Position numbers and translations under genes: made by a program | Assembly (NCBI GenBank): GCA_965220765.1 | Contig: OZ244847.1 | Coordinates: 3,200,699-3,264,698 of the forward strand | Length of the DNA: 64,000 bases | Direction of reading: 5' to 3' | Source of the DNA: Candidatus Latescibacterota bacterium | Lineage (GTDB): Bacteria; Latescibacterota; UBA2968 | The notes under the pieces: generated by a model | Told to the model about the DNA's origin: nothing | The model's input: the letters and a program-made list of their open reading frames with translations, nothing else | The model's database searches: none | Shown: positions 1,151 to 24,432 of the stretch, piece after piece | How positions within the stretch are numbered: the first letter of the stretch is position 1 | Layout of the letters: each line of letters begins with the position of its first letter

Positions 1151-2179
1151 CTATGGCAGTTCATTACCCCAGGGAAAAGATTGCACTCTCAAAGAGCGAT
1201 CTACATCTGACAGAGCAATTTTCGCACTCCCTTGCTTTGAGGAATGGTGGATGGCAAATCCGATCTCTGTCGATCTGCGCGCCTGATTGATGTCACAGGC
1301 CGTGCGACCACCCGTTTTGATAGCTTGTAGGAGATCGCGCACCATTGCAGGTCCTGTAGGCCACGGGGCTTCGTCTGTGGGAAGACTGAGAGGTTGGTAC
1401 ACATCTTCTTGGCAGAGATGGACCTGCGTCGCGTCAGAGAGGATGGATAGATGACCTTTTGTTCCCGTGATTTGAAAACTGGGACCTTTGCCGCCATCCG
1501 CTGTGATGTAGGCGACTACGCCATTGTCCAGACCAATTTGAGCACGCGCAGGCGGATCGAGTTTGCGGCGTTCATCGTCTGAATCACCGTGGTCAATCAG
1601 GCCGCTGACCCATAAGGGTTCTGGATCGCCCAATAAACCCAGCAAGGCGTCGTACCAATGACAGCCGTGGTTGATGGTGTTGGGCAGGCCATAAGCGACG
1701 AGACTCGTGATGGTTCCGATGAGGCCGCTCATGTTCTCGCGAAGGTGGCGATAGGGGAGAGACCAGCGTCGGTCAAGGCCAAAGCAGAGAGGGATGTTTG
1801 CACATGCTGAGATGATACGATCCATTTCCGCAAGGGTTGTAGCCAGAGGCTTGTCGCAGAGGATACCCCGAACGCCTGCTGCGGTAGCGGCCTCAATCTG
1901 GTCGGCGTGCATGGTCTGGCGCGTGGCAATGCAGAGTACATCTGGTTTGATCTCTTTGAGCATGCGTTCATAGTCACCGAAAGTTGGGATATCGCCCCAA
2001 ACGTCCCGCCAGCAGGTGACAAATTCCGCTCGCGTTTCCGCGCCGTAATCGAATACCCCCACGATCTCCGTTTCCGGAATGGCTCGAAAAGCCGCGGCAA
2101 AATTGTGATGGGTCAAATCGCGCAGTAACATGCGATGGCAACCCGCAATGGCGATCCTCAGTGTGTTTTCTTTAGCCAT
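1151..2179 (-). CDS. Gfo/Idh/MocA family NAD(P)-dependent oxidoreductase
   Basis: N-terminal Rossmann fold (LRIAIAGCHRM...) and a typical Gfo/Idh/MocA C-terminal domain. 342-aa ORF directly downstream of the sulfatase-like gene on the same strand. Confidence 0.8.
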   Translation of the reverse strand: MAKENTLRIAIAGCHRMLLRDLTHHNFAAAFRAIPETEIVGVFDYGAETRAEFVTCWRDVWGDIPTFGDYERMLKEIKPDVLCIATRQTMHADQIEAATAAGVRGILCDKPLATTLAEMDRIISACANIPLCFGLDRRWSLPYRHLRENMSGLIGTITSLVAYGLPNTINHGCHWYDALLGLLGDPEPLWVSGLIDHGDSDDERRKLDPPARAQIGLDNGVVAYITADGGKGPSFQITGTKGHLSILSDATQVHLCQEDVYQPLSLPTDEAPWPTGPAMVRDLLQAIKTGGRTACDINQARRSTEIGFAIHHSSKQGSAKIALSDVDRSLRVQSFPWGNELP

Positions 2180-2364
2180 CTCTATGGCCCTCCTGTAAAC
2201 GCATTTTACGTATCGAAACCAAAGTAATATATCCGGCTATAAGAGTAAAGAACTGAAACACTGCGAATGCCAAATGAGATTCAGGACTTGCCCCACCCAT
2301 GATTTTGCTTATTTTTGTAGGCAATATATTCCAGAAGTAGTCACCTCAATATTGGAGTGTTAAT

Positions 2365-2805
2365 ATGGCAGTTAAACAGCTTGAACCCACAGCAGCAAAA
2401 GCTGCGATGGATGAAGCGGAAAATTCGGTTTATCTCGATGTGCGCACGGAAATGGAGTTTGCCCAGGGGCACCCCGAAGGCGCCATCAATATCCCCATTG
2501 CAGTCCCCGGCCCAGGGGGCATGGTGCCAAATCCCGATTTTTTGAATATTGTGCAAAAAACACTATCCGATAAAGAACAGCCCATTTTTTGTGGCTGTCA
2601 CAGTGGGATGCGTTCTCAGATGGCCGCGGATTTGATGGCGCGGTTGGGGTATTCGAATCTCGCCAATGTTCAGGGCGGCTTTGGCGGAAAAGTCGAAAAT
2701 GGCGTTCTCGTAGTGGTGGGATGGCGCGACTCCAATTTGCCTGTCGAAACCGATGTCAATGATTCCAATTCTTATGCGAGTATCAAGGCGCGGGCAGAGT
2801 CTTAG
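2365..2805 (+). CDS. Rhodanese-domain sulfurtransferase
   Basis: Single rhodanese domain with an active-site loop cysteine (FCGCHSGMRSQ). GGAG RBS upstream. Confidence 0.75.
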   Translation: MAVKQLEPTAAKAAMDEAENSVYLDVRTEMEFAQGHPEGAINIPIAVPGPGGMVPNPDFLNIVQKTLSDKEQPIFCGCHSGMRSQMAADLMARLGYSNLANVQGGFGGKVENGVLVVVGWRDSNLPVETDVNDSNSYASIKARAES

Positions 2806-2868
2806 GAAAGAGGGACATAGCCTGATTATTTCATTTGAAGGAGAATAGAATATCGTTCTCCTTTTATT

Positions 2869-3936
2869 TTGTGGCAGAGTGGTTTACGAGTGATTAAAGC
2901 AAAAGATACACAAGCGCGTGAAGCATTTGTTGCAGCAGCAGATTTGCAGACCGGCACTCAGGTCCTGGATCTCGGCTGGGAGGGAGACTGTCTCGAATGC
3001 TTACAGAAAACAGGTGCTCGGGTGACTTTCGTGGGGGAGGATATTCGCGCTGTGCAAAAGGCAGAAGCACTTCTGATAAATGGGGTGCTCAGTGCAATGC
3101 CAGCACAGGTGATTACCGACGCGCGTGTCGTATTTTACAAACCTGCACAGAGATCTGCCAAGGGTCAGGTCTTTGAGTGGATTGATCAGGGCTTTCGGGT
3201 ACTTGAAATGGGTGGCGTGCTTTATCTGGCAGGGCAACGAAATCGCGGCATTAGAAGTTATGCCGCATATTTACAGGCGGTTTTTGGCAATAGCAAACGC
3301 GCAGGGCGCGTGGGCAGAGTGGAAATTTATAGCGCAAAAAAGGAGCAGAACGATCCTTGCCAAGCACCAGTTGACAATCGAATGACATTTGAATTGCGCG
3401 ATTTGCCGGGCAGCCCATACAGTGTTGAAACCCGTGCGGGCGTTTTTTCACAAGATGGACTTGATGACGGAACGAGGTTACTGATCGACTCTATGGAAGT
3501 CCGTCCCACAGACCAGGTGCTGGACTGGGGATGTGGCTGGGGCGCACTCGGCATGGTTGCTGCGCGTCTATCTGCAAAAGGCAACGCAACGCTCGTCGAT
3601 TCAAATATTCGCGCTGTTTCTTGCGCAAAAAGAAATTTGAGGCGAAATCGAATTTGCAATGCAGTGGTGCATGTGGAAGATGCTCGGGTTCTTGACCGGC
3701 GCGAAAAATTCGATCTGATTGTTTCCAATCCGCCCTTTCACGATGGCAATTTAGCGGCACACCCCCTTATAGAAGGTGCTTTTCGGGCATTGCGACCAGG
3801 AGGGCGTTTGATGCTTGTTGTGATGCGTCCAGAAGCGTATTTGAAACACATCCACAGGATTTTTGGGAAGGGGAGGGGAAATATCATGGCTCAAAAAGAT
3901 GGATATGTCGTTCTCCATGCCCATATAGGGAACTAA
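2869..3936 (+). CDS. Class I SAM-dependent methyltransferase, RsmC/RlmG-like rRNA (guanine-N2) methyltransferase
   Basis: SAM-binding motif VLDWGCGWGALG and the NPPFH catalytic motif typical of N2-G/N6-A methyltransferases. TTG start according to the track. Confidence 0.65.
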   Translation: MWQSGLRVIKAKDTQAREAFVAAADLQTGTQVLDLGWEGDCLECLQKTGARVTFVGEDIRAVQKAEALLINGVLSAMPAQVITDARVVFYKPAQRSAKGQVFEWIDQGFRVLEMGGVLYLAGQRNRGIRSYAAYLQAVFGNSKRAGRVGRVEIYSAKKEQNDPCQAPVDNRMTFELRDLPGSPYSVETRAGVFSQDGLDDGTRLLIDSMEVRPTDQVLDWGCGWGALGMVAARLSAKGNATLVDSNIRAVSCAKRNLRRNRICNAVVHVEDARVLDRREKFDLIVSNPPFHDGNLAAHPLIEGAFRALRPGGRLMLVVMRPEAYLKHIHRIFGKGRGNIMAQKDGYVVLHAHIGN

Positions 3937-13553: not shown

Positions 13554-13629
13554 GCGGGAATAACTCAGTTGGTAGAGTGCAAGCTTCCCAAGCTTGATGT
13601 CGCGGGTTCGAGTCCCGTTTCCCGCTCCA
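13554..13629 (+). tRNA. tRNA-Gly (anticodon CCC), with encoded CCA
   Basis: Manually folded cloverleaf with acceptor GCGGGAA/TTCCCGC, D-arm ACTC-AGTTGGTA-GAGT, and anticodon stem CAAGC/GCTTG. The loop TTCCCAA gives anticodon CCC. T-arm GCGGG-TTCGAGT-CCCGT, discriminator U, then CCA. Confidence 0.85.
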
Positions 13630-19600: not shown

Positions 19601-20352
19601 GCAAGTTGTTCGACGACGCACAGGCAATGCTCCAGACGATTACCGATGAGGGATGGCTCAAGGCACAGGCTGTGTACGGATTTTTCTCTGCAAATGCCGA
19701 TGGTGATGACATTGTCGTGTTTGAGGACGAGCACAGAGATACCGAGCGGGTGCGGTTGCCGATGTTGCGCCAGCAGCAGGAAAAGCGCGCGGGGGGACCG
19801 TATTTTTCACTGGCTGATTTTGTCGCGCCTGTGGGATATGCGGATTATATCGGGGCATTTGCCGTGACTGCGGGTTTGGGTGTTGACGCAAAATCTGCGG
19901 GATTTAAGGATGCGCTGGACGATTACAATGCCATTTTGCTCCAGGCTGTGGCGGACCGCCTGGCTGAGGCATTTGCCGAGTGTTTGCACGCAAAGGCGCG
20001 GAGAGATTGGAGCTATGGTCTGGATGAGGCGTTGAGCAATGAGGATTTGATCAGGGAACGATATCGCGGTATTCGCCCTGCGCCCGGTTATCCCGCTTGC
20101 CCGGATCACACGGAGAAGCAGACTTTGTTCGATTTGCTCGGGGTTGAGCGAGAGGCGGATATTCGGTTGACGGAGAATTTTGCGATGTCCCCAGCGGCTT
20201 CGGTCAGCGGGTGGTATTTCGCACATCCCGATGCGCGTTATTTTGCCGTGGGCAGGGTTAACGCCGATCAAGTGGCCGATTACGCACGCCGGAAGGGGAT
20301 GCAGATGGCAGAGATGGAGCGCTGGCTGGCGCCGAATTTGGGGTATAAATAA
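16624..20352 (+). CDS. metH: Cobalamin-dependent methionine synthase MetH
   Basis: 1242 aa containing all four modules (Hcy-binding, pterin-binding, B12-binding with DxHxxG-like region, AdoMet-activation domain). It carries an in-frame 24-aa duplication/insertion near the N-terminus (see findings). Confidence 0.9.
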
Positions 20353-20381
20353 AGAATAGTGAGGTTTGTAAGGAAAACAGC

Positions 20382-20978
20382 ATGCATGTTTATATCGTAT
20401 TCGCTCATCCGAGTAGGCGATCTTTTACGGGTGATGTGCTCGCAGAATTTTGTCGCGGATTGGAGGATGGGGAGCACTCATATGAGATAGGCGATTTGTA
20501 CGAAATGGATTTCAGGACCGATATGAGTTTGGATGAATACAACCGGGAGATGAATGTCCATGGCAATCGTCCTGAATTGCCCGTTCCATCTGATGTGCAG
20601 GCTGAACACGCAAAGATCGAAAAGGCTGATGGGCTGGTGTTCGTATTTCCAGTTTGGTGGAGTGATTGTCCGGCAAAATTGAAGGGATGGTTTGATCGGG
20701 TGTGTGTTTGTGGATATACGTATGTGTATGAGAACGAAGAATACCCGATGTCTGGACTCCAGATTGATAGGGCATTGGTCTTGTGTACTGCAGGTAACAC
20801 CAGCGAGCATCTTGAAGAAATCGGTATCTTAGAGAGTATGCGGCGTATTTATCTCAATGATCGCCTTCGCCCTGAAATAGGCGTGACACAGGCAGATATG
20901 GTTGTGTTGGGAGGCGGAGAAAGCATGAGGCAGAAGAATCTCCTACGAGCCTATCAGTTGGGTAAGGAGTTTTGTTGA
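20382..20978 (+). CDS. NAD(P)H-dependent oxidoreductase, flavodoxin-like fold (NQO/MdaB-type)
   Basis: MHVYIVFAHPSRRSFTGDV... and VFVFPVWWSDCPAKLKGWFDRV are typical of the Flavodoxin_2/NAD(P)H:quinone oxidoreductase family. Confidence 0.7.
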   Translation: MHVYIVFAHPSRRSFTGDVLAEFCRGLEDGEHSYEIGDLYEMDFRTDMSLDEYNREMNVHGNRPELPVPSDVQAEHAKIEKADGLVFVFPVWWSDCPAKLKGWFDRVCVCGYTYVYENEEYPMSGLQIDRALVLCTAGNTSEHLEEIGILESMRRIYLNDRLRPEIGVTQADMVVLGGGESMRQKNLLRAYQLGKEFC

Positions 20979-21084
20979 CGTAATTTCAAACTGTTGTGGT
21001 TTGATCATAGTGTAGATTTTTTTATATTTTAAAAATCAAAGGTAAATTGAAGGCAGGCACACATCCAAAATAGGAGATGGAACG

Positions 21085-22203
21085 ATGGGCCTCAAGATTC
21101 AAAACCTTACATTAAAACATTTTCGCGCATTCCGAGAATTGCGTATTAGTGGTTTGGGCCGTGTGAACCTCATCACAGGAAAAAACAACACCGGAAAGTC
21201 GTCAGTGCTTGAAGCATTACACATTTTCGCGCTTGGCGCAGCACTTGACGTAATTAGCCACGTACTTGAACGGCGCGAAGGAAATATTAAAGTGGAGGGA
21301 GAAGGCCGTGCTGCTGACTTGGACCGTCTGCTTCAAATTTCCACACTGTTCTACGGATTTCCAGAGCCTTCAGACATCGCTGATCCAATCGTCATTTCAA
21401 GCGATAACAATTCCTGTCCTATGCGGTTGACGATACAGGTAGGCTGGTTTTCGGAGGAACGTGACGCCGACGGCAATTTGCGGTTGGTTCCTTTGCAAGC
21501 AGATTCCTTTGACGAGCCAGATGACATCGCAGCATTGGTAGTTGAGTCACAAAATAAAAAAAAGCGAATCCTTGCACTGGAAAGGCTTGAGCGATACTCT
21601 TACCTGAGCAGAATTTCCGCACCTGGTTCCGAAACCCAAATACCCTGCATCTTTGTCAGTCCTTATGATGACCGTACAGCAATATTGGCTCCCTTATGGG
21701 ACAGGATTTCGCTAACAAAATTCGAGAATCATGTCGTTGAGGCTTTGAAAATTATAGAACCACGCATATCTGCTGTCAATATGATATATGATGAAAACAG
21801 TAACATAGGACGCAAAGCGATTGTCCGGATTGAGAATATTGATCGACCTGTACCGCTACGGTTGTTGGGCGACGGCGTGAATCGCCTCCTTGACATAGCC
21901 CTCTCGCTCATCAACGCTCGCGGGGGGCTCTTGTTAATAGATGAATTTGAAAACGGCTTGCATCACACAGTCCAGTACGATGCCTGGAAGACTATATTCC
22001 TCTTGGCCAGGGAACTCGATATACAGGTTTTCGCCACTTCGCACAGTTGGGATGCGGTAGAGGCTTTTCAGCAAGCTGCAGCGGAAACACCTGAAGACGG
22101 AACTCTCGTGCGCCTGACCCGAAGAGGAGAAGAGATCATTCCCACCGTATTCTCGGAAGATGAACTGGCTATAGTGACTCGTAATAGAATCGAGGTGCGC
22201 TGA
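21085..22203 (+). CDS. ABC-type (AAA_21/OLD N-terminal-like) ATPase, candidate defence-system component
   Basis: Walker A motif GKNNTGKS, signature-like LGDGVNRLL, Walker B LLLIDEFENGLH, and H-loop ATSHS. Lower GC than neighbouring genes. AT-rich upstream intergenic region with an RBS AGGAGA. Confidence 0.7.
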   Translation: MGLKIQNLTLKHFRAFRELRISGLGRVNLITGKNNTGKSSVLEALHIFALGAALDVISHVLERREGNIKVEGEGRAADLDRLLQISTLFYGFPEPSDIADPIVISSDNNSCPMRLTIQVGWFSEERDADGNLRLVPLQADSFDEPDDIAALVVESQNKKKRILALERLERYSYLSRISAPGSETQIPCIFVSPYDDRTAILAPLWDRISLTKFENHVVEALKIIEPRISAVNMIYDENSNIGRKAIVRIENIDRPVPLRLLGDGVNRLLDIALSLINARGGLLLIDEFENGLHHTVQYDAWKTIFLLARELDIQVFATSHSWDAVEAFQQAAAETPEDGTLVRLTRRGEEIIPTVFSEDELAIVTRNRIEVR

Positions 22204-22204
22204 T

Positions 22205-22834
22205 ATGGCTGTCCGAAAGAAACTTTTGGTGGAAGGCAAGGACGACGAGCATGTTTTGAAACACATTTGCGGGACTTGTGACGTTGGCCACCTTGACGAG
22301 GTGAAAAATCTTGGCAACGTTGAAGAACTGCTTGTAAGCATACCTACTGAGCTTAAAGGAAGTGACCTGGAAGCTGTTGGTGTGATTGTAGATGCTGATA
22401 CCGATATGAATAGCCGTTGGCAATCGATTCGCGACCAAATCATCAGTGTTGGATACCAGAGTGTGCCAATACAACCGGTTGCGGACGGAACCATCCTTGA
22501 TCCGCCCGAGGGAACCCTGTTACCAAAAGTGGGTATTTGGATTATGCCGGATAACCGAACAGACGGAATCTTGGAGGATTTTCTACGCTTTCTCGTCCGT
22601 CCACCAAACGATCTGTTCGACCATGTAGAGGCAAGCGTTGCGACTATACCACAAAAATTGCAGCGTTTCAAAGACCTGGATAAGATCAAGGCGGTTATAC
22701 ATACCTGGCTTGCATGGCAAGAAGATCCAGGCAAACCCTACGGCACCGCTATTACCGCTGGCTTCCTTGATCCGAACATCGCTGAGGTAGATGTTCTCGT
22801 CTCTTGGTTGAAGCGATTATTTTTTTCAAGCTAA
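22205..22834 (+). CDS. Small TOPRIM-fold protein (DUF4276/DUF3226/RloB-like), probable nuclease partner of the upstream ATPase
   Basis: Starts 2 nt after the ATPase stop. N-terminal LLVEGKDDEHVL supplies the Toprim glutamate, and VGVIVDADTDM supplies the DxD motif. 209 aa. Confidence 0.5.
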   Translation: MAVRKKLLVEGKDDEHVLKHICGTCDVGHLDEVKNLGNVEELLVSIPTELKGSDLEAVGVIVDADTDMNSRWQSIRDQIISVGYQSVPIQPVADGTILDPPEGTLLPKVGIWIMPDNRTDGILEDFLRFLVRPPNDLFDHVEASVATIPQKLQRFKDLDKIKAVIHTWLAWQEDPGKPYGTAITAGFLDPNIAEVDVLVSWLKRLFFSS

Positions 22835-22863
22835 GTATAACGATATTGTTTTAACCATTTAAC

Positions 22864-22899
22864 CCCACAAGATCAACCGATTTTGTGGGACTTTTTTTT
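22864..22899 (+). terminator. Rho-independent terminator closing the ATPase-TOPRIM cassette
   Basis: CCCACAA-loop-TTGTGGG hairpin followed by a run of 9 T. Confidence 0.6.
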
Positions 22900-23016
22900 A
22901 TTGTTGCTAAACTATTTTATTTGAAAAACATTTGGTGTGTTTGGCTGGGCGTTGTATTATTTAAAAATGAATATGTGATAGGTAATGCTAAATTAACAAC
23001 TAAAAAGGCATAGTCC

Positions 23017-24432
23017 ATGCGCAGAGCGAAAATAGTGAGTACACTTGGACCTGCGAGTTCGTCGGAGCGCGTGATAGAGCAACTGATTGGGGCGGGGGTG
23101 GATGTTTTTCGGCTCAATTTTTCACACGGGACACGAGAGGAACACACGGAGAATGTTGGGCGCATTCGGCAGATTGCGGACAACATGCAGCGCAGTGTCG
23201 CGATTTTACAGGATTTGCAGGGTCCTAAAATGCGGGTGGGGAAACTCGCGGAGGATCCGATTGAGTTGGAAGAAGGCAACAGGCTGACGGTGACAACTCG
23301 CGAAGTTCCGGGTAATGCAGCGTGTGTATCGACAACTTATGCGGGATTGCCCCGAGATGTGAAGCCCGCGGATCGCATTTTGCTCGATGACGGACATATT
23401 GAGTTAATGGTGCGAGAAGTCTATCGTTCGGATGTCGTGTGTGAGGTTGTGGTGGGGGGGCTGTTAAAATCCAACAAGGGCATCAATTTGCCCGGTGTAC
23501 AGGTCAGCGCGCCTTCTCTGACGACCAAAGATCGAGAGGACCTGGATCTGGGTATCGAATTGGGCGTGGATTATATTGCGCTGTCTTTTGTGCGGGAACC
23601 CGACGATGTGCGAGAGGTCCAACATATTATTGAACGGGCAGAGAAAGAGATCCCCGTTATTGCAAAGCTGGAACGCGCCGAAGCCGTCGATCACCTCGAA
23701 GATATCCTCGATGTTGCCGATGGCGTAATGGTTGCACGGGGCGATCTGGGCGTAGAATTATCACCTGAAGACGTGCCAGTGATCCAGAAGCGTGTGATTT
23801 CGGCGGCCAACCGCGCGGGAGTGTTTGTGATTACGGCTACGCAGATGCTGGAATCGATGACCGATCATCCGCGGCCTACGCGCGCCGAGGCATCAGATGT
23901 GGCCAATGCGATTTTTGACGGCACCGATGCGGTGATGCTGTCTGGCGAGACCGCGATAGGCAAATATCCCCTTCAAACCGTGCAAATGATGGCACGGATT
24001 ATTGAGAAGGCCGAAGCGAGTGTAGAATTGGGGCCGCCAATTTTAAATCTGGATTCTTCGCTTTCTTTTCCAGATGCGATTGGGCAAGCTGCCGCTGCGG
24101 TATCGACGGCGGTATCCCCCAAAGCCATTGTCGCATTTACCCAATCGGGATCTACAGCGCGTCTGATTTCAAAACGCAGACCGCGTACGCCGATTATTGC
24201 GTTTACGCCCAGTGCGCGGATATGTCGGCGGTTGTGCTTGTGCTGGGGCGTTGAACCTCGTCAAATTACGTTGATCGACGATACGGATCGCATGGTAGCG
24301 GAAGTTGAAGCGCGTTTGCTCTCTGAGGGCAATGTGCGTTTTGGAGATACGCTGGTGATTCTGGCCGGTGCGCCCATCACGGCGCGGGCCGAGACCAATT
24401 TGCTAAAATTGCATCGGGTTGGAGAAATATAG
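23017..24432 (+). CDS. pyk: Pyruvate kinase
   Basis: MRRAKIVSTLGPASSS...FRLNFSHGT, with full-length homology to pyruvate kinase (471 aa). Confidence 0.9.
   Translation: MRRAKIVSTLGPASSSERVIEQLIGAGVDVFRLNFSHGTREEHTENVGRIRQIADNMQRSVAILQDLQGPKMRVGKLAEDPIELEEGNRLTVTTREVPGNAACVSTTYAGLPRDVKPADRILLDDGHIELMVREVYRSDVVCEVVVGGLLKSNKGINLPGVQVSAPSLTTKDREDLDLGIELGVDYIALSFVREPDDVREVQHIIERAEKEIPVIAKLERAEAVDHLEDILDVADGVMVARGDLGVELSPEDVPVIQKRVISAANRAGVFVITATQMLESMTDHPRPTRAEASDVANAIFDGTDAVMLSGETAIGKYPLQTVQMMARIIEKAEASVELGPPILNLDSSLSFPDAIGQAAAAVSTAVSPKAIVAFTQSGSTARLISKRRPRTPIIAFTPSARICRRLCLCWGVEPRQITLIDDTDRMVAEVEARLLSEGNVRFGDTLVILAGAPITARAETNLLKLHRVGEI

Follow-up and report, generated by a model that had tools for sequence, protein, structure and literature searches.

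A catalogued ATPase-DUF3226 gene pair as a putative split OLD-like defence module, anciently resident between metH and pyk in a Latescibacterota genome

The window analysed in this study is a stretch of 64,000 nucleotides from a Candidatus Latescibacterota bacterium (assembly GCA_965220765.1, contig OZ244847.1, positions 3,200,699 to 3,264,698 of the forward strand), and our subject is a pair of open reading frames (ORFs) located in it between metH and pyk: an ABC ATPase gene (ORF1) followed at once by a gene for a smaller partner protein (ORF2). A sequence-only reading of this DNA had presented the pair as a candidate undescribed anti-phage cassette, horizontally acquired and residing in a low-GC islet. 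By sequence match the pair is instead a member of the PDC-M38 group of PADLOC, with ORF2 belonging to Pfam family DUF3226; it is thus already catalogued, and is neither undescribed nor a new kind of system. As a defence-type module, with a function that we infer, it is plausible but ordinary, and it is an ancient resident of its locus rather than a new arrival. The structural side of the earlier reading, an ABC ATPase with a Toprim-like partner, was correctly called, the Toprim-like fold of ORF2 being a model prediction. The elements of the pair are:

21085..22203, plus strand: ORF1, 372 aa, OLD-type ABC ATPase (PADLOC PDC-M38A; Pfam AAA_15/AAA_21)
22205..22834, plus strand: ORF2, 209 aa, DUF3226 (PDC-M38B), with a predicted Toprim-like alpha/beta core and a helical region
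22193..22207, plus strand: coupling junction, TGAtATG, with the stop of ORF1 at 22201-22203, one spacer base and the ATG of ORF2 at 22205

The assignment to a known group rests on matches that run from end to end in both proteins, which is why the pair does not qualify as undescribed. In PADLOC-DB, residues 5-372 of ORF1 align with positions 2-383 of the 383-position PDC-M38A profile (PDLC04611, E = 3.8e-93), and residues 2-206 of ORF2 align with positions 11-218 of 220 in PDC-M38B (PDLC04624, E = 7e-55). The Pfam profile of DUF3226 (PF11536) is covered by ORF2 from position 2 to 207 of 208, with E = 1.2e-64 and 218.3 bits against a cutoff of 27. A PDC-M38 locus is recognized by an A match, a B match and adjacency on the same strand; all three are found here, the two genes are translationally coupled, and we see no structural difference from the catalogued group. 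At E≤1 Pfam returns only DUF3226 for ORF2 and PADLOC only PDC-M38B, with no match to Toprim_OLD, DUF4435, RloB, DUF4276, AriB, AbiLii or HEC-01B. The profile searches suggested earlier were therefore borne out for AAA_15/AAA_21 and DUF3226, but not for DUF4276, RloB, DUF4435 or Toprim_OLD. No NCBIfam model reached its cutoff. The 145 PDC candidates were proposed by a 'guilt-by-embedding' approach from cassettes embedded in BREX, DISARM and type I restriction-modification (R-M) loci (Payne et al., bioRxiv 10.1101/2024.01.29.577857), and the supplement of that work assigns two ATPase>>partner cassettes to PDC-M38. According to a 2026 survey, most PDCs still await validation.

The two genes form a strict module well beyond this genome. 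We fetched 86 loci, from six close relatives and 80 diverse genomes, and in 82 of them an ORF1-like ATPase gene (~365-400 aa) lies directly 5' of the DUF3226 gene on the same strand, typically with a spacing of -4 to +4 nt. Of the remaining four loci, L047 and L082 stop at a contig end, L024 has an insertion and L016 is a start-calling artefact; the ATPase precedes the DUF3226 gene wherever the contig allows. Neighbours on both sides are heterogeneous, and among the fetched loci no conserved third gene was found; together with the constant pairing, this identifies a two-gene unit. The flavodoxin-like gene that precedes the pair in the window was considered as a third component and rejected, as it occurs with the pair in the six close relatives but not once among the 80 diverse genomes. 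DUF3226 itself is widespread: there are 1,936 relatives in a 90%-clustered database, and 3,056 clusters at E≤1e-3 (712 at E≤1e-30) in a 50%-clustered library. It is encoded in at least 591 species-representative genomes, from Latescibacterota, Planctomycetota, Verrucomicrobiota, Chloroflexota, Cyanobacteria, Spirochaetia, Pseudomonadota, Bacteroides and others, and identity to ORF2 is ~65% across several phyla. The best 150 representatives measure 129-275 aa, most of them 200-240 aa, and hence none of these could include a fused ATPase.

Two of the fetched loci depart from the simple arrangement. In a Spirochaetia metagenome-assembled genome (MAG; L024:8246-9914) about 1.67 kb separate the two genes, of which the ATPase ORF is cut to 326 aa; the insertion may be a mobile element that disrupts the pair. 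A contig from an uncultured Enterobacteriaceae MAG (L063:153-3897) carries two head-to-tail tandem copies (A 153-1382, B 1382-2053, A 2141-3250, B 3247-3897).

The positions of both ORFs and all the motifs quoted in the earlier reading are present in the sequence. Those of ORF1, with invariance judged over 36 homologues, are:

21178..21201, plus strand: Walker A, G32-KNNTGKS-39; invariant G32, N34, N35, G37, K38, S39, S40
21865..21891, plus strand: ABC-signature-like motif, L261-GDGVNRLL-269; invariant G262, D263, G264, N266, R267, L268
21928..21963, plus strand: Walker B/D-loop, L282-LLIDEFENGLH-293; invariant L283, L284, D286, E287, E289, N290, H293
22033..22047, plus strand: H-loop, A317-TSHS-321; invariant A317, T318, S319, H320, S321

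Since every nucleotide-binding motif is invariant among these homologues, ORF1 should bind and hydrolyse ATP. Pfam assigns it to AAA_15 (1.6e-21) and AAA_21 (4e-18); in PADLOC it also covers the whole AbiLi model (PDLC02336, 4e-68, profile 2-340 of 340), with partial matches to AriA, GajA, HEC-01A and PtuA. The ATPase had been thought unusually short, but its 372 aa are normal among homologues (~365-400 aa; we count 2217 of these, each of ~370 aa). A housekeeping identity, which would have counted against a defence role, was looked for and not found: RecF scores 41 bits against a cutoff of 172, over residues 5-53 only, and the NCBIfam transporter models score ≤24 bits against cutoffs of ≥240. 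The matches to RecF, Rad50 and transporters are confined to short P-loop or signature stretches, ~45 N-terminal residues in the case of RecF and Rad50. A profile search of the PDB gave likewise only short matches: the P-loop region near the N-terminus aligned with RecF, Rad50 and PtuA, and the stretch around the signature and Walker B aligned with ABC transporters. AlphaFold yielded a poor model of ORF1 (pLDDT, the predicted local distance difference test score, of 57), which was not used for fold searches; no long coiled-coil is predicted in it, which given this pLDDT is weak evidence.

For ORF2, residue conservation was calculated over 140 diverse representatives, and the homologues retain the acidic residues expected of a Toprim nuclease:

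22223..22249, plus strand: strand-1 acidic motif, L7-LVEGKDDE-15 (context L7-LVEGKDDEHVL-18); E10 in 140/140, D14 in 133/140
22391..22405, plus strand: DxD motif, D63-ADTD-67 (context V60-IVDADTDM-68); D63 in 139/140
22544..22582, plus strand: start of the first post-sheet helix, M114-PDNRTDGILEDF-126; P115 in 140/140, N117 in 139/140, E124 in 139/140
22688..22720, plus strand: lysine helix, K162-AVIHTWLAWQ-172; K162 in 140/140, Q172 in 136/140

Thus E10 and K162 are conserved at 100%, D63, N117 and E124 at 99%, D14 at 95% and D65 at 84% (118/140, with N in another 21, or 15%). In the AlphaFold model of ORF2 (38 sequences; pLDDT 74.9, with residues 1-115 mostly at 73-94) these residues are placed as follows. 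A strand is predicted at 4-9 and a helix at 12-24, such that E10 ends strand 1 and D14, four residues later, opens helix 1; D63 terminates the predicted strand 55-63, with D65 two residues beyond it. The predicted helix 122-130 is the first one past the sheet and has E124 at its start, while K162 would sit, with lower confidence, in a later helix (157-171). The two-metal site of Bp OLD is composed of E400, E404, D455/D457, T506/E508 and K562 (PMC6755086), and judging from spacing and secondary structure, not from three-dimensional superposition, E10/D14/D63/D65/E124/K162 have a putatively equivalent arrangement to E400/E404/D455/D457/E508/K562. In this putative correspondence D14 is the counterpart of E404, N117/E124 of T506/E508 and K162 of K562. 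Structural comparison of the ORF2 model gave the following values (two for each comparison, in the same order):

PH0156 (2p62): 10.0 and 177
Catalytic region of the Class 2 Bp OLD (6nk8): 9.7 and 158
Class 1 Ts OLD (6p74): 8.6 and 123
Retron Ec67 (9i2f): 7.7 and 153
Generic alpha/beta folds: ≤7.8 and about 100

ORF2 is a putative small Toprim-like nuclease. The first-ranking PH0156 of Pyrococcus horikoshii (PDB 2P62) is an uncharacterised structural-genomics protein, to which neither ORF2 nor its profile is linked by sequence searches. Foldseek backs the fold far less well than this comparison, and against the viral structures of BFVD it returned no match.

Together ORF1 and ORF2 amount to 581 aa, close to the length of an OLD protein made as one chain, and the name 'split OLD' suits the pair well. 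The OLD proteins of Class 1 and Class 2 (P2 Old, Ts OLD 6P74, Bp OLD 6NK8, GajA) consist of one polypeptide that carries an ABC ATPase at its N-terminal end and a Toprim domain at its C-terminal end, whereas here two ORFs are separated by a stop. Matches to the PADLOC Old and GajA models are partial and limited to the ATPase, there is none to Toprim_OLD, and the likeness seen by Foldseek is weak. In Gabija a UvrD-like GajB gene follows immediately downstream; the pair is followed instead by a terminator and then by pyk. PARIS, also termed 'Class 4 OLD' (AriA plus AriB, a DUF4435 Toprim), is closer in layout, having two genes of which the first encodes the ATPase and the second the Toprim effector, and possibly also in logic, as in both a sensor ATPase would restrain and then release a nuclease. 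The AriA models, however, cover only residues 244-321 (1e-23) and 219-323 of ORF1, not its full length; the coiled-coil insertions of AriA are not predicted in the low-confidence ORF1 model; and the AriB chain is ~100 aa longer than ORF2, which has no DUF4435 or AriB match and a template modelling (TM) score of only 0.27 to 8ux9_A in Foldseek.

Two further systems deserve comparison. Lactococcal AbiL, listed among the ABC ATPase + TOPRIM systems (PMC11464382), shares with ORF1 the AbiLi ATPase lineage, but ORF2 has no AbiLii, RloB or DUF4435 counterpart. HEC-01, an Hma-embedded ATPase with a DUF4276 TOPRIM partner, has the same architecture (~400 + 207 aa) and is nevertheless a distinct family: the HEC-01A matches of ORF1 are weak (7e-11 at best), and for ORF2 there is no HEC-01B match. 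An hhalign comparison of the DUF3226 alignment with the single DUF4276 protein of the relative L001 gave a probability of 0.25%, although with so shallow a profile (Neff 1.7) the two may still be distantly related. It is because the models of the partner proteins do not match that the pair is not PARIS, Gabija, AbiL or HEC-01. In its proposed working it is like OLD and PARIS, but it belongs to neither family. The earlier suggestion of an unclassified system distinct from PARIS and Gabija is therefore right as regards these two, but not as regards its being unclassified, given that PDC-M38 is in the catalogue.

The history of the pair can be read from six close relatives (L001-L006: NCBI MAGs labelled 'Gemmatimonadetes bacterium' and ENA metagenome contigs), for which ORF2 itself served as the query. 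In 6/6 of them the flavodoxin-like gene is followed, as in the window, by ATPase, DUF3226, pyk, Omp85 and TamB. Protein identities to these relatives are 91-94% for ORF1 and 81-86% for ORF2, values that fall inside the span of the flanking genes (pyk 95-97%, metH 90-92%, Omp85 81-87%). Synonymous divergence (dS) is equal for the pair (0.26-0.43) and for pyk (0.28-0.32), and the nonsynonymous to synonymous ratio (dN/dS) is 0.10-0.13 for ORF1 and 0.20-0.31 for ORF2. Synteny, identity and dS like those of the flanks indicate that the pair was inherited vertically under purifying selection. A metagenome search anchored on pyk yielded one usable distant relative (L090, pyk 79% identical) with no pair beside pyk; there the surrounding synteny is wholly lost, so that it does not represent a clean empty site.

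GC content and GC at third codon positions (GC3) are 0.476 and 0.47 for both genes of the pair, versus 0.534 and 0.582 for metH and 0.540 and 0.549 for pyk, which agrees with the more A/T-rich codons noted in the sequence-only reading. The GC dip that was described as an islet is real but modest: the mean of the window is 0.501 (standard deviation 0.020), 12.7% of equal-sized tiles are as low or lower, and the flavodoxin-like gene is equally low. This gene (20382-20978, plus strand), which resembles flavodoxin_2/NAD(P)H oxidoreductases (PF02525, 3.7e-31) and has a GC content of 0.469, may have come with the pair or may mark the edge of an island. With relatives keeping the pair in place, dS like that of pyk and only a modest dip, horizontal acquisition in a recent sense is not supported; the lower GC3 and the patchy occurrence across phyla are compatible with an ancient acquisition only.

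What does vary among the six relatives is the interval between metH and the flavodoxin-like gene, corresponding to 20353-20381 of the window. In L001 it contains a HEC-01 (AAA_21 + DUF4276) with a DUF433, the HEC-01 copy being 0.7 kb upstream of the pair; in L002-L004 it contains a 1153-aa CBASS-type E2/E1/JAB-patatin fusion; in L005, a TIR protein, candidate PDC-S35; and in L006, the S subunit of a type I R-M system beside a PDC-M54A-like protein of 1516 aa. The window has no gene in this interval, as metH abuts the flavodoxin-like gene, 30 nt apart. With the pair constant and the adjacent defence genes variable, the pair forms the stable border of a defence hotspot.

Elsewhere, the pair is found within Hma systems and on plasmids. 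In about 9 of the 80 diverse genomes it lies on the same strand between or beside HmaA (an SNF2 helicase) and HmaB (a DUF1156 methylase). In L030, L039 and L056 (5236-14256) the flanking genes are full-length on both sides, HmaA matching as SNF2 helicase (E=0) and HmaB as DUF1156 adenine methylase (E=0), from which it follows that Hma embedding, known from the published HEC systems, extends to cassettes of PDC-M38 type; in ~90% of the loci examined Hma genes are absent within 10 kb. Among 72,556 plasmid records, 9 carry the pair. It is the main cargo, besides rep and mob genes, of a 6.4-kb ColE10/MOBQ plasmid of Citrobacter freundii (L087, NZ_CP055541.1), where the genes are annotated as 'ATP-binding protein' and 'DUF3226 domain-containing protein', overlap by 4 nt and have a small 'tRNA modification GTPase' gene directly upstream; several Acinetobacter plasmids of 9.7-14 kb also carry it.

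We consider it rather probable that the pair is a split OLD-like sensor ATPase with a two-metal Toprim nuclease effector, which would be restrained until an infection cue and would then abort the infection. The ABC ATPase would act as sensor and regulator and the DUF3226 protein as the nuclease; the two would form a complex in which the nuclease is kept inactive, a cue relayed through ATP binding or hydrolysis would release or activate it, and the freed nuclease would cut DNA or tRNA, thereby aborting the infection. The precedents for this proposal are PARIS, in which an AriA hexamer releases AriB, which cleaves tRNA, so that toxin-like behaviour and abortive defence are one mechanism; the two-metal catalysis of OLD (PMC6755086); and a 2026 preprint in which P2 Old is reported to be a tRNase.

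Several observations weigh against this proposal. Payne et al. call the PDC systems untested; no paper in the searchable literature mentions DUF3226 or PDC-M38; and HEC-01, the nearest of the tested analogues that have their Toprim partner as a separate protein, did not protect when it was assayed in published work. None of 50,697 phage records contains the pair, a point that also enters the comparison with PARIS. The structural evidence is weak in several respects: Foldseek of the ORF2 model against the PDB gives nothing at E≤1e-3, and its best OLD match, the catalytic region of Xcc OLD, has E 0.02 and TM 0.45, with lumazine synthase and PurE folds ranking alongside OLD catalytic regions; confidence in the model is low over its C-terminal half, where the helices are weaker; the residue correspondence with OLD comes from spacing, not from superposed coordinates; and confidence in the ORF1 model is low. 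In addition, the immediate neighbours across genomes are mostly housekeeping genes, the 64-kb window is otherwise housekeeping with no other defence system, and the high cross-phylum conservation and stable vertical inheritance are untypical of fast-turnover defence genes.

Three rival explanations each have some support and are hard to separate from abortive defence. The pair might be an addiction or stabilisation module of toxin-antitoxin (TA) type, in which the ATPase checks a nuclease toxin and persistence is due to post-segregational killing, with no dedicated anti-phage role. This would agree with the compact and tightly coupled layout, with the pair being the main cargo of small plasmids (6.4 kb in Citrobacter, 9.7-14 kb in Acinetobacter), with its frequent location among housekeeping genes rather than in defence islands, and with the Pfam description of AAA_21 as a 'putative AbiEii toxin, Type IV TA system'. 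We regard it as unlikely: so few plasmid records carry the pair, and its Hma embedding, like the variable defence island beside it, speaks for defence. Moreover, it overlaps with the abortive defence explanation, because in PARIS toxicity and abortive defence are the same mechanism. Somewhat less likely still is a housekeeping nuclease complex for chromosomal DNA maintenance or repair in this lineage, similar to RecF, Rad50-SbcCD or a core-genome OLD. The syntenic, vertical inheritance with housekeeping flanks at the dS of pyk, the strong purifying selection, the very high cross-phylum conservation, the resemblance of the ORF1 N-terminus to RecF/Rad50 P-loop regions and the housekeeping content of the remaining window would all be accommodated. 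However, the RecF/Rad50 matches are short and far under cutoffs, and the pair is patchy across phyla rather than universal, tandemly duplicated in one genome and interrupted in another, and present on mobilizable plasmids and inside Hma systems; the relative with a 79% identical pyk lacks it next to pyk, though the whole synteny is broken there.

An equally low probability is given to an auxiliary role, in which the pair would be an anti-anti-restriction sensor (compare PARIS, which senses Ocr) that needs Hma, BREX or R-M, with the window copy as an orphan. The definition of PDC candidates by embedding in BREX, DISARM and type I R-M loci, the presence, in several genomes, of HmaA and HmaB on either side of the pair, and the description of OLD-type ABC ATPase + Toprim pairs as BREX backup effectors (PMC12839542) are in its favour; yet no Hma or BREX genes flank the pair in the window or its relatives, nor Hma genes in most of the loci examined, the pair is the sole defence-like cargo on small plasmids, and most occurrences of published Hma-embedded systems, Septu for instance, lie outside Hma.

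Going beyond the preferred reading of an OLD-like abortive defence module, it is possible, at somewhat less than even chance in our view, that ATPase/DUF3226 pairs form a distinct OLD-like immunity class, in which a ~210-aa effector with a complete two-metal site would be run by a short, dedicated ABC ATPase and would have a trigger and a target of its own, such as tRNA. On this view, the high conservation across phyla and the stable place in the chromosome could mean that the pair guards a conserved host process rather than recognising a fast-evolving phage protein. If the pair is a working defence, a function would be provided for DUF3226, a family present in at least 591 species-level genomes and ~3,000 clusters at 50% identity, and a compact split version would be added to the OLD/PARIS/AbiL group, useful for understanding how ABC ATPase sensors control Toprim nucleases. 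As for the window, the locus had been correctly read as a defence-type ATPase-nuclease cassette, one that is already catalogued and anciently resident.

The signals around the two genes are:

21001..21028, plus strand: weak sigma-70-like promoter candidate in the AT-rich spacer 5' of ORF1, 9/12 consensus matches
21072..21076, plus strand: Shine-Dalgarno-like AGGAG, 8 nt ahead of the ORF1 ATG, by direct sequence reading
22864..22899, plus strand: intrinsic-terminator-like hairpin (22864-22889, 11-bp stem, 4-nt loop) followed by ACTTTTTTTT

Promoter-like matches are no more frequent in the region than in shuffles, and 21001..21028 is thus a candidate. A GAGG(TG) ribosome-binding-like site occurs inside the 3' end of ORF1, with GAGG 6-7 nt 5' of the ORF2 start; the latter had been placed 2 nt after the ORF1 stop, as the single base between them confirms. 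The hairpin with ACTTTTTTTT is the sole terminator-like site in 20300-23100 and closes the two-gene unit; both it and the AT-rich flanks (GC 0.32 in 20979-21084 and 0.30 in 22835-23016) are as anticipated.

Some minor features of the window complete the picture. The sole tRNA gene, tRNA-Gly with anticodon CCC (13554-13629, plus strand), is 7.5 kb upstream of the pair and not adjacent to it, and hence gives no sign of tRNA-targeted integration. PADLOC matches to mad3, mad2, mad8 and AriA elsewhere in the window are, judging by their number, presumably transporter ATPases and a methyltransferase, and were rejected as a defence system; the mad3 matches comprise three members, the same number as the Pfam ABC_tran ATPases, and there is one small methyltransferase domain. 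An antisense ORF of 266 aa that spans the junction (21934..22734) has no family match and was treated as a shadow ORF. In three of the relatives small ORFs (66-163 aa, no Pfam match) are found between the DUF3226 gene and pyk (L001:8801-9001, L003:8671-8871, L006:8768-9259); their counterpart in the window is a 182-bp AT-rich spacer with the terminator only.

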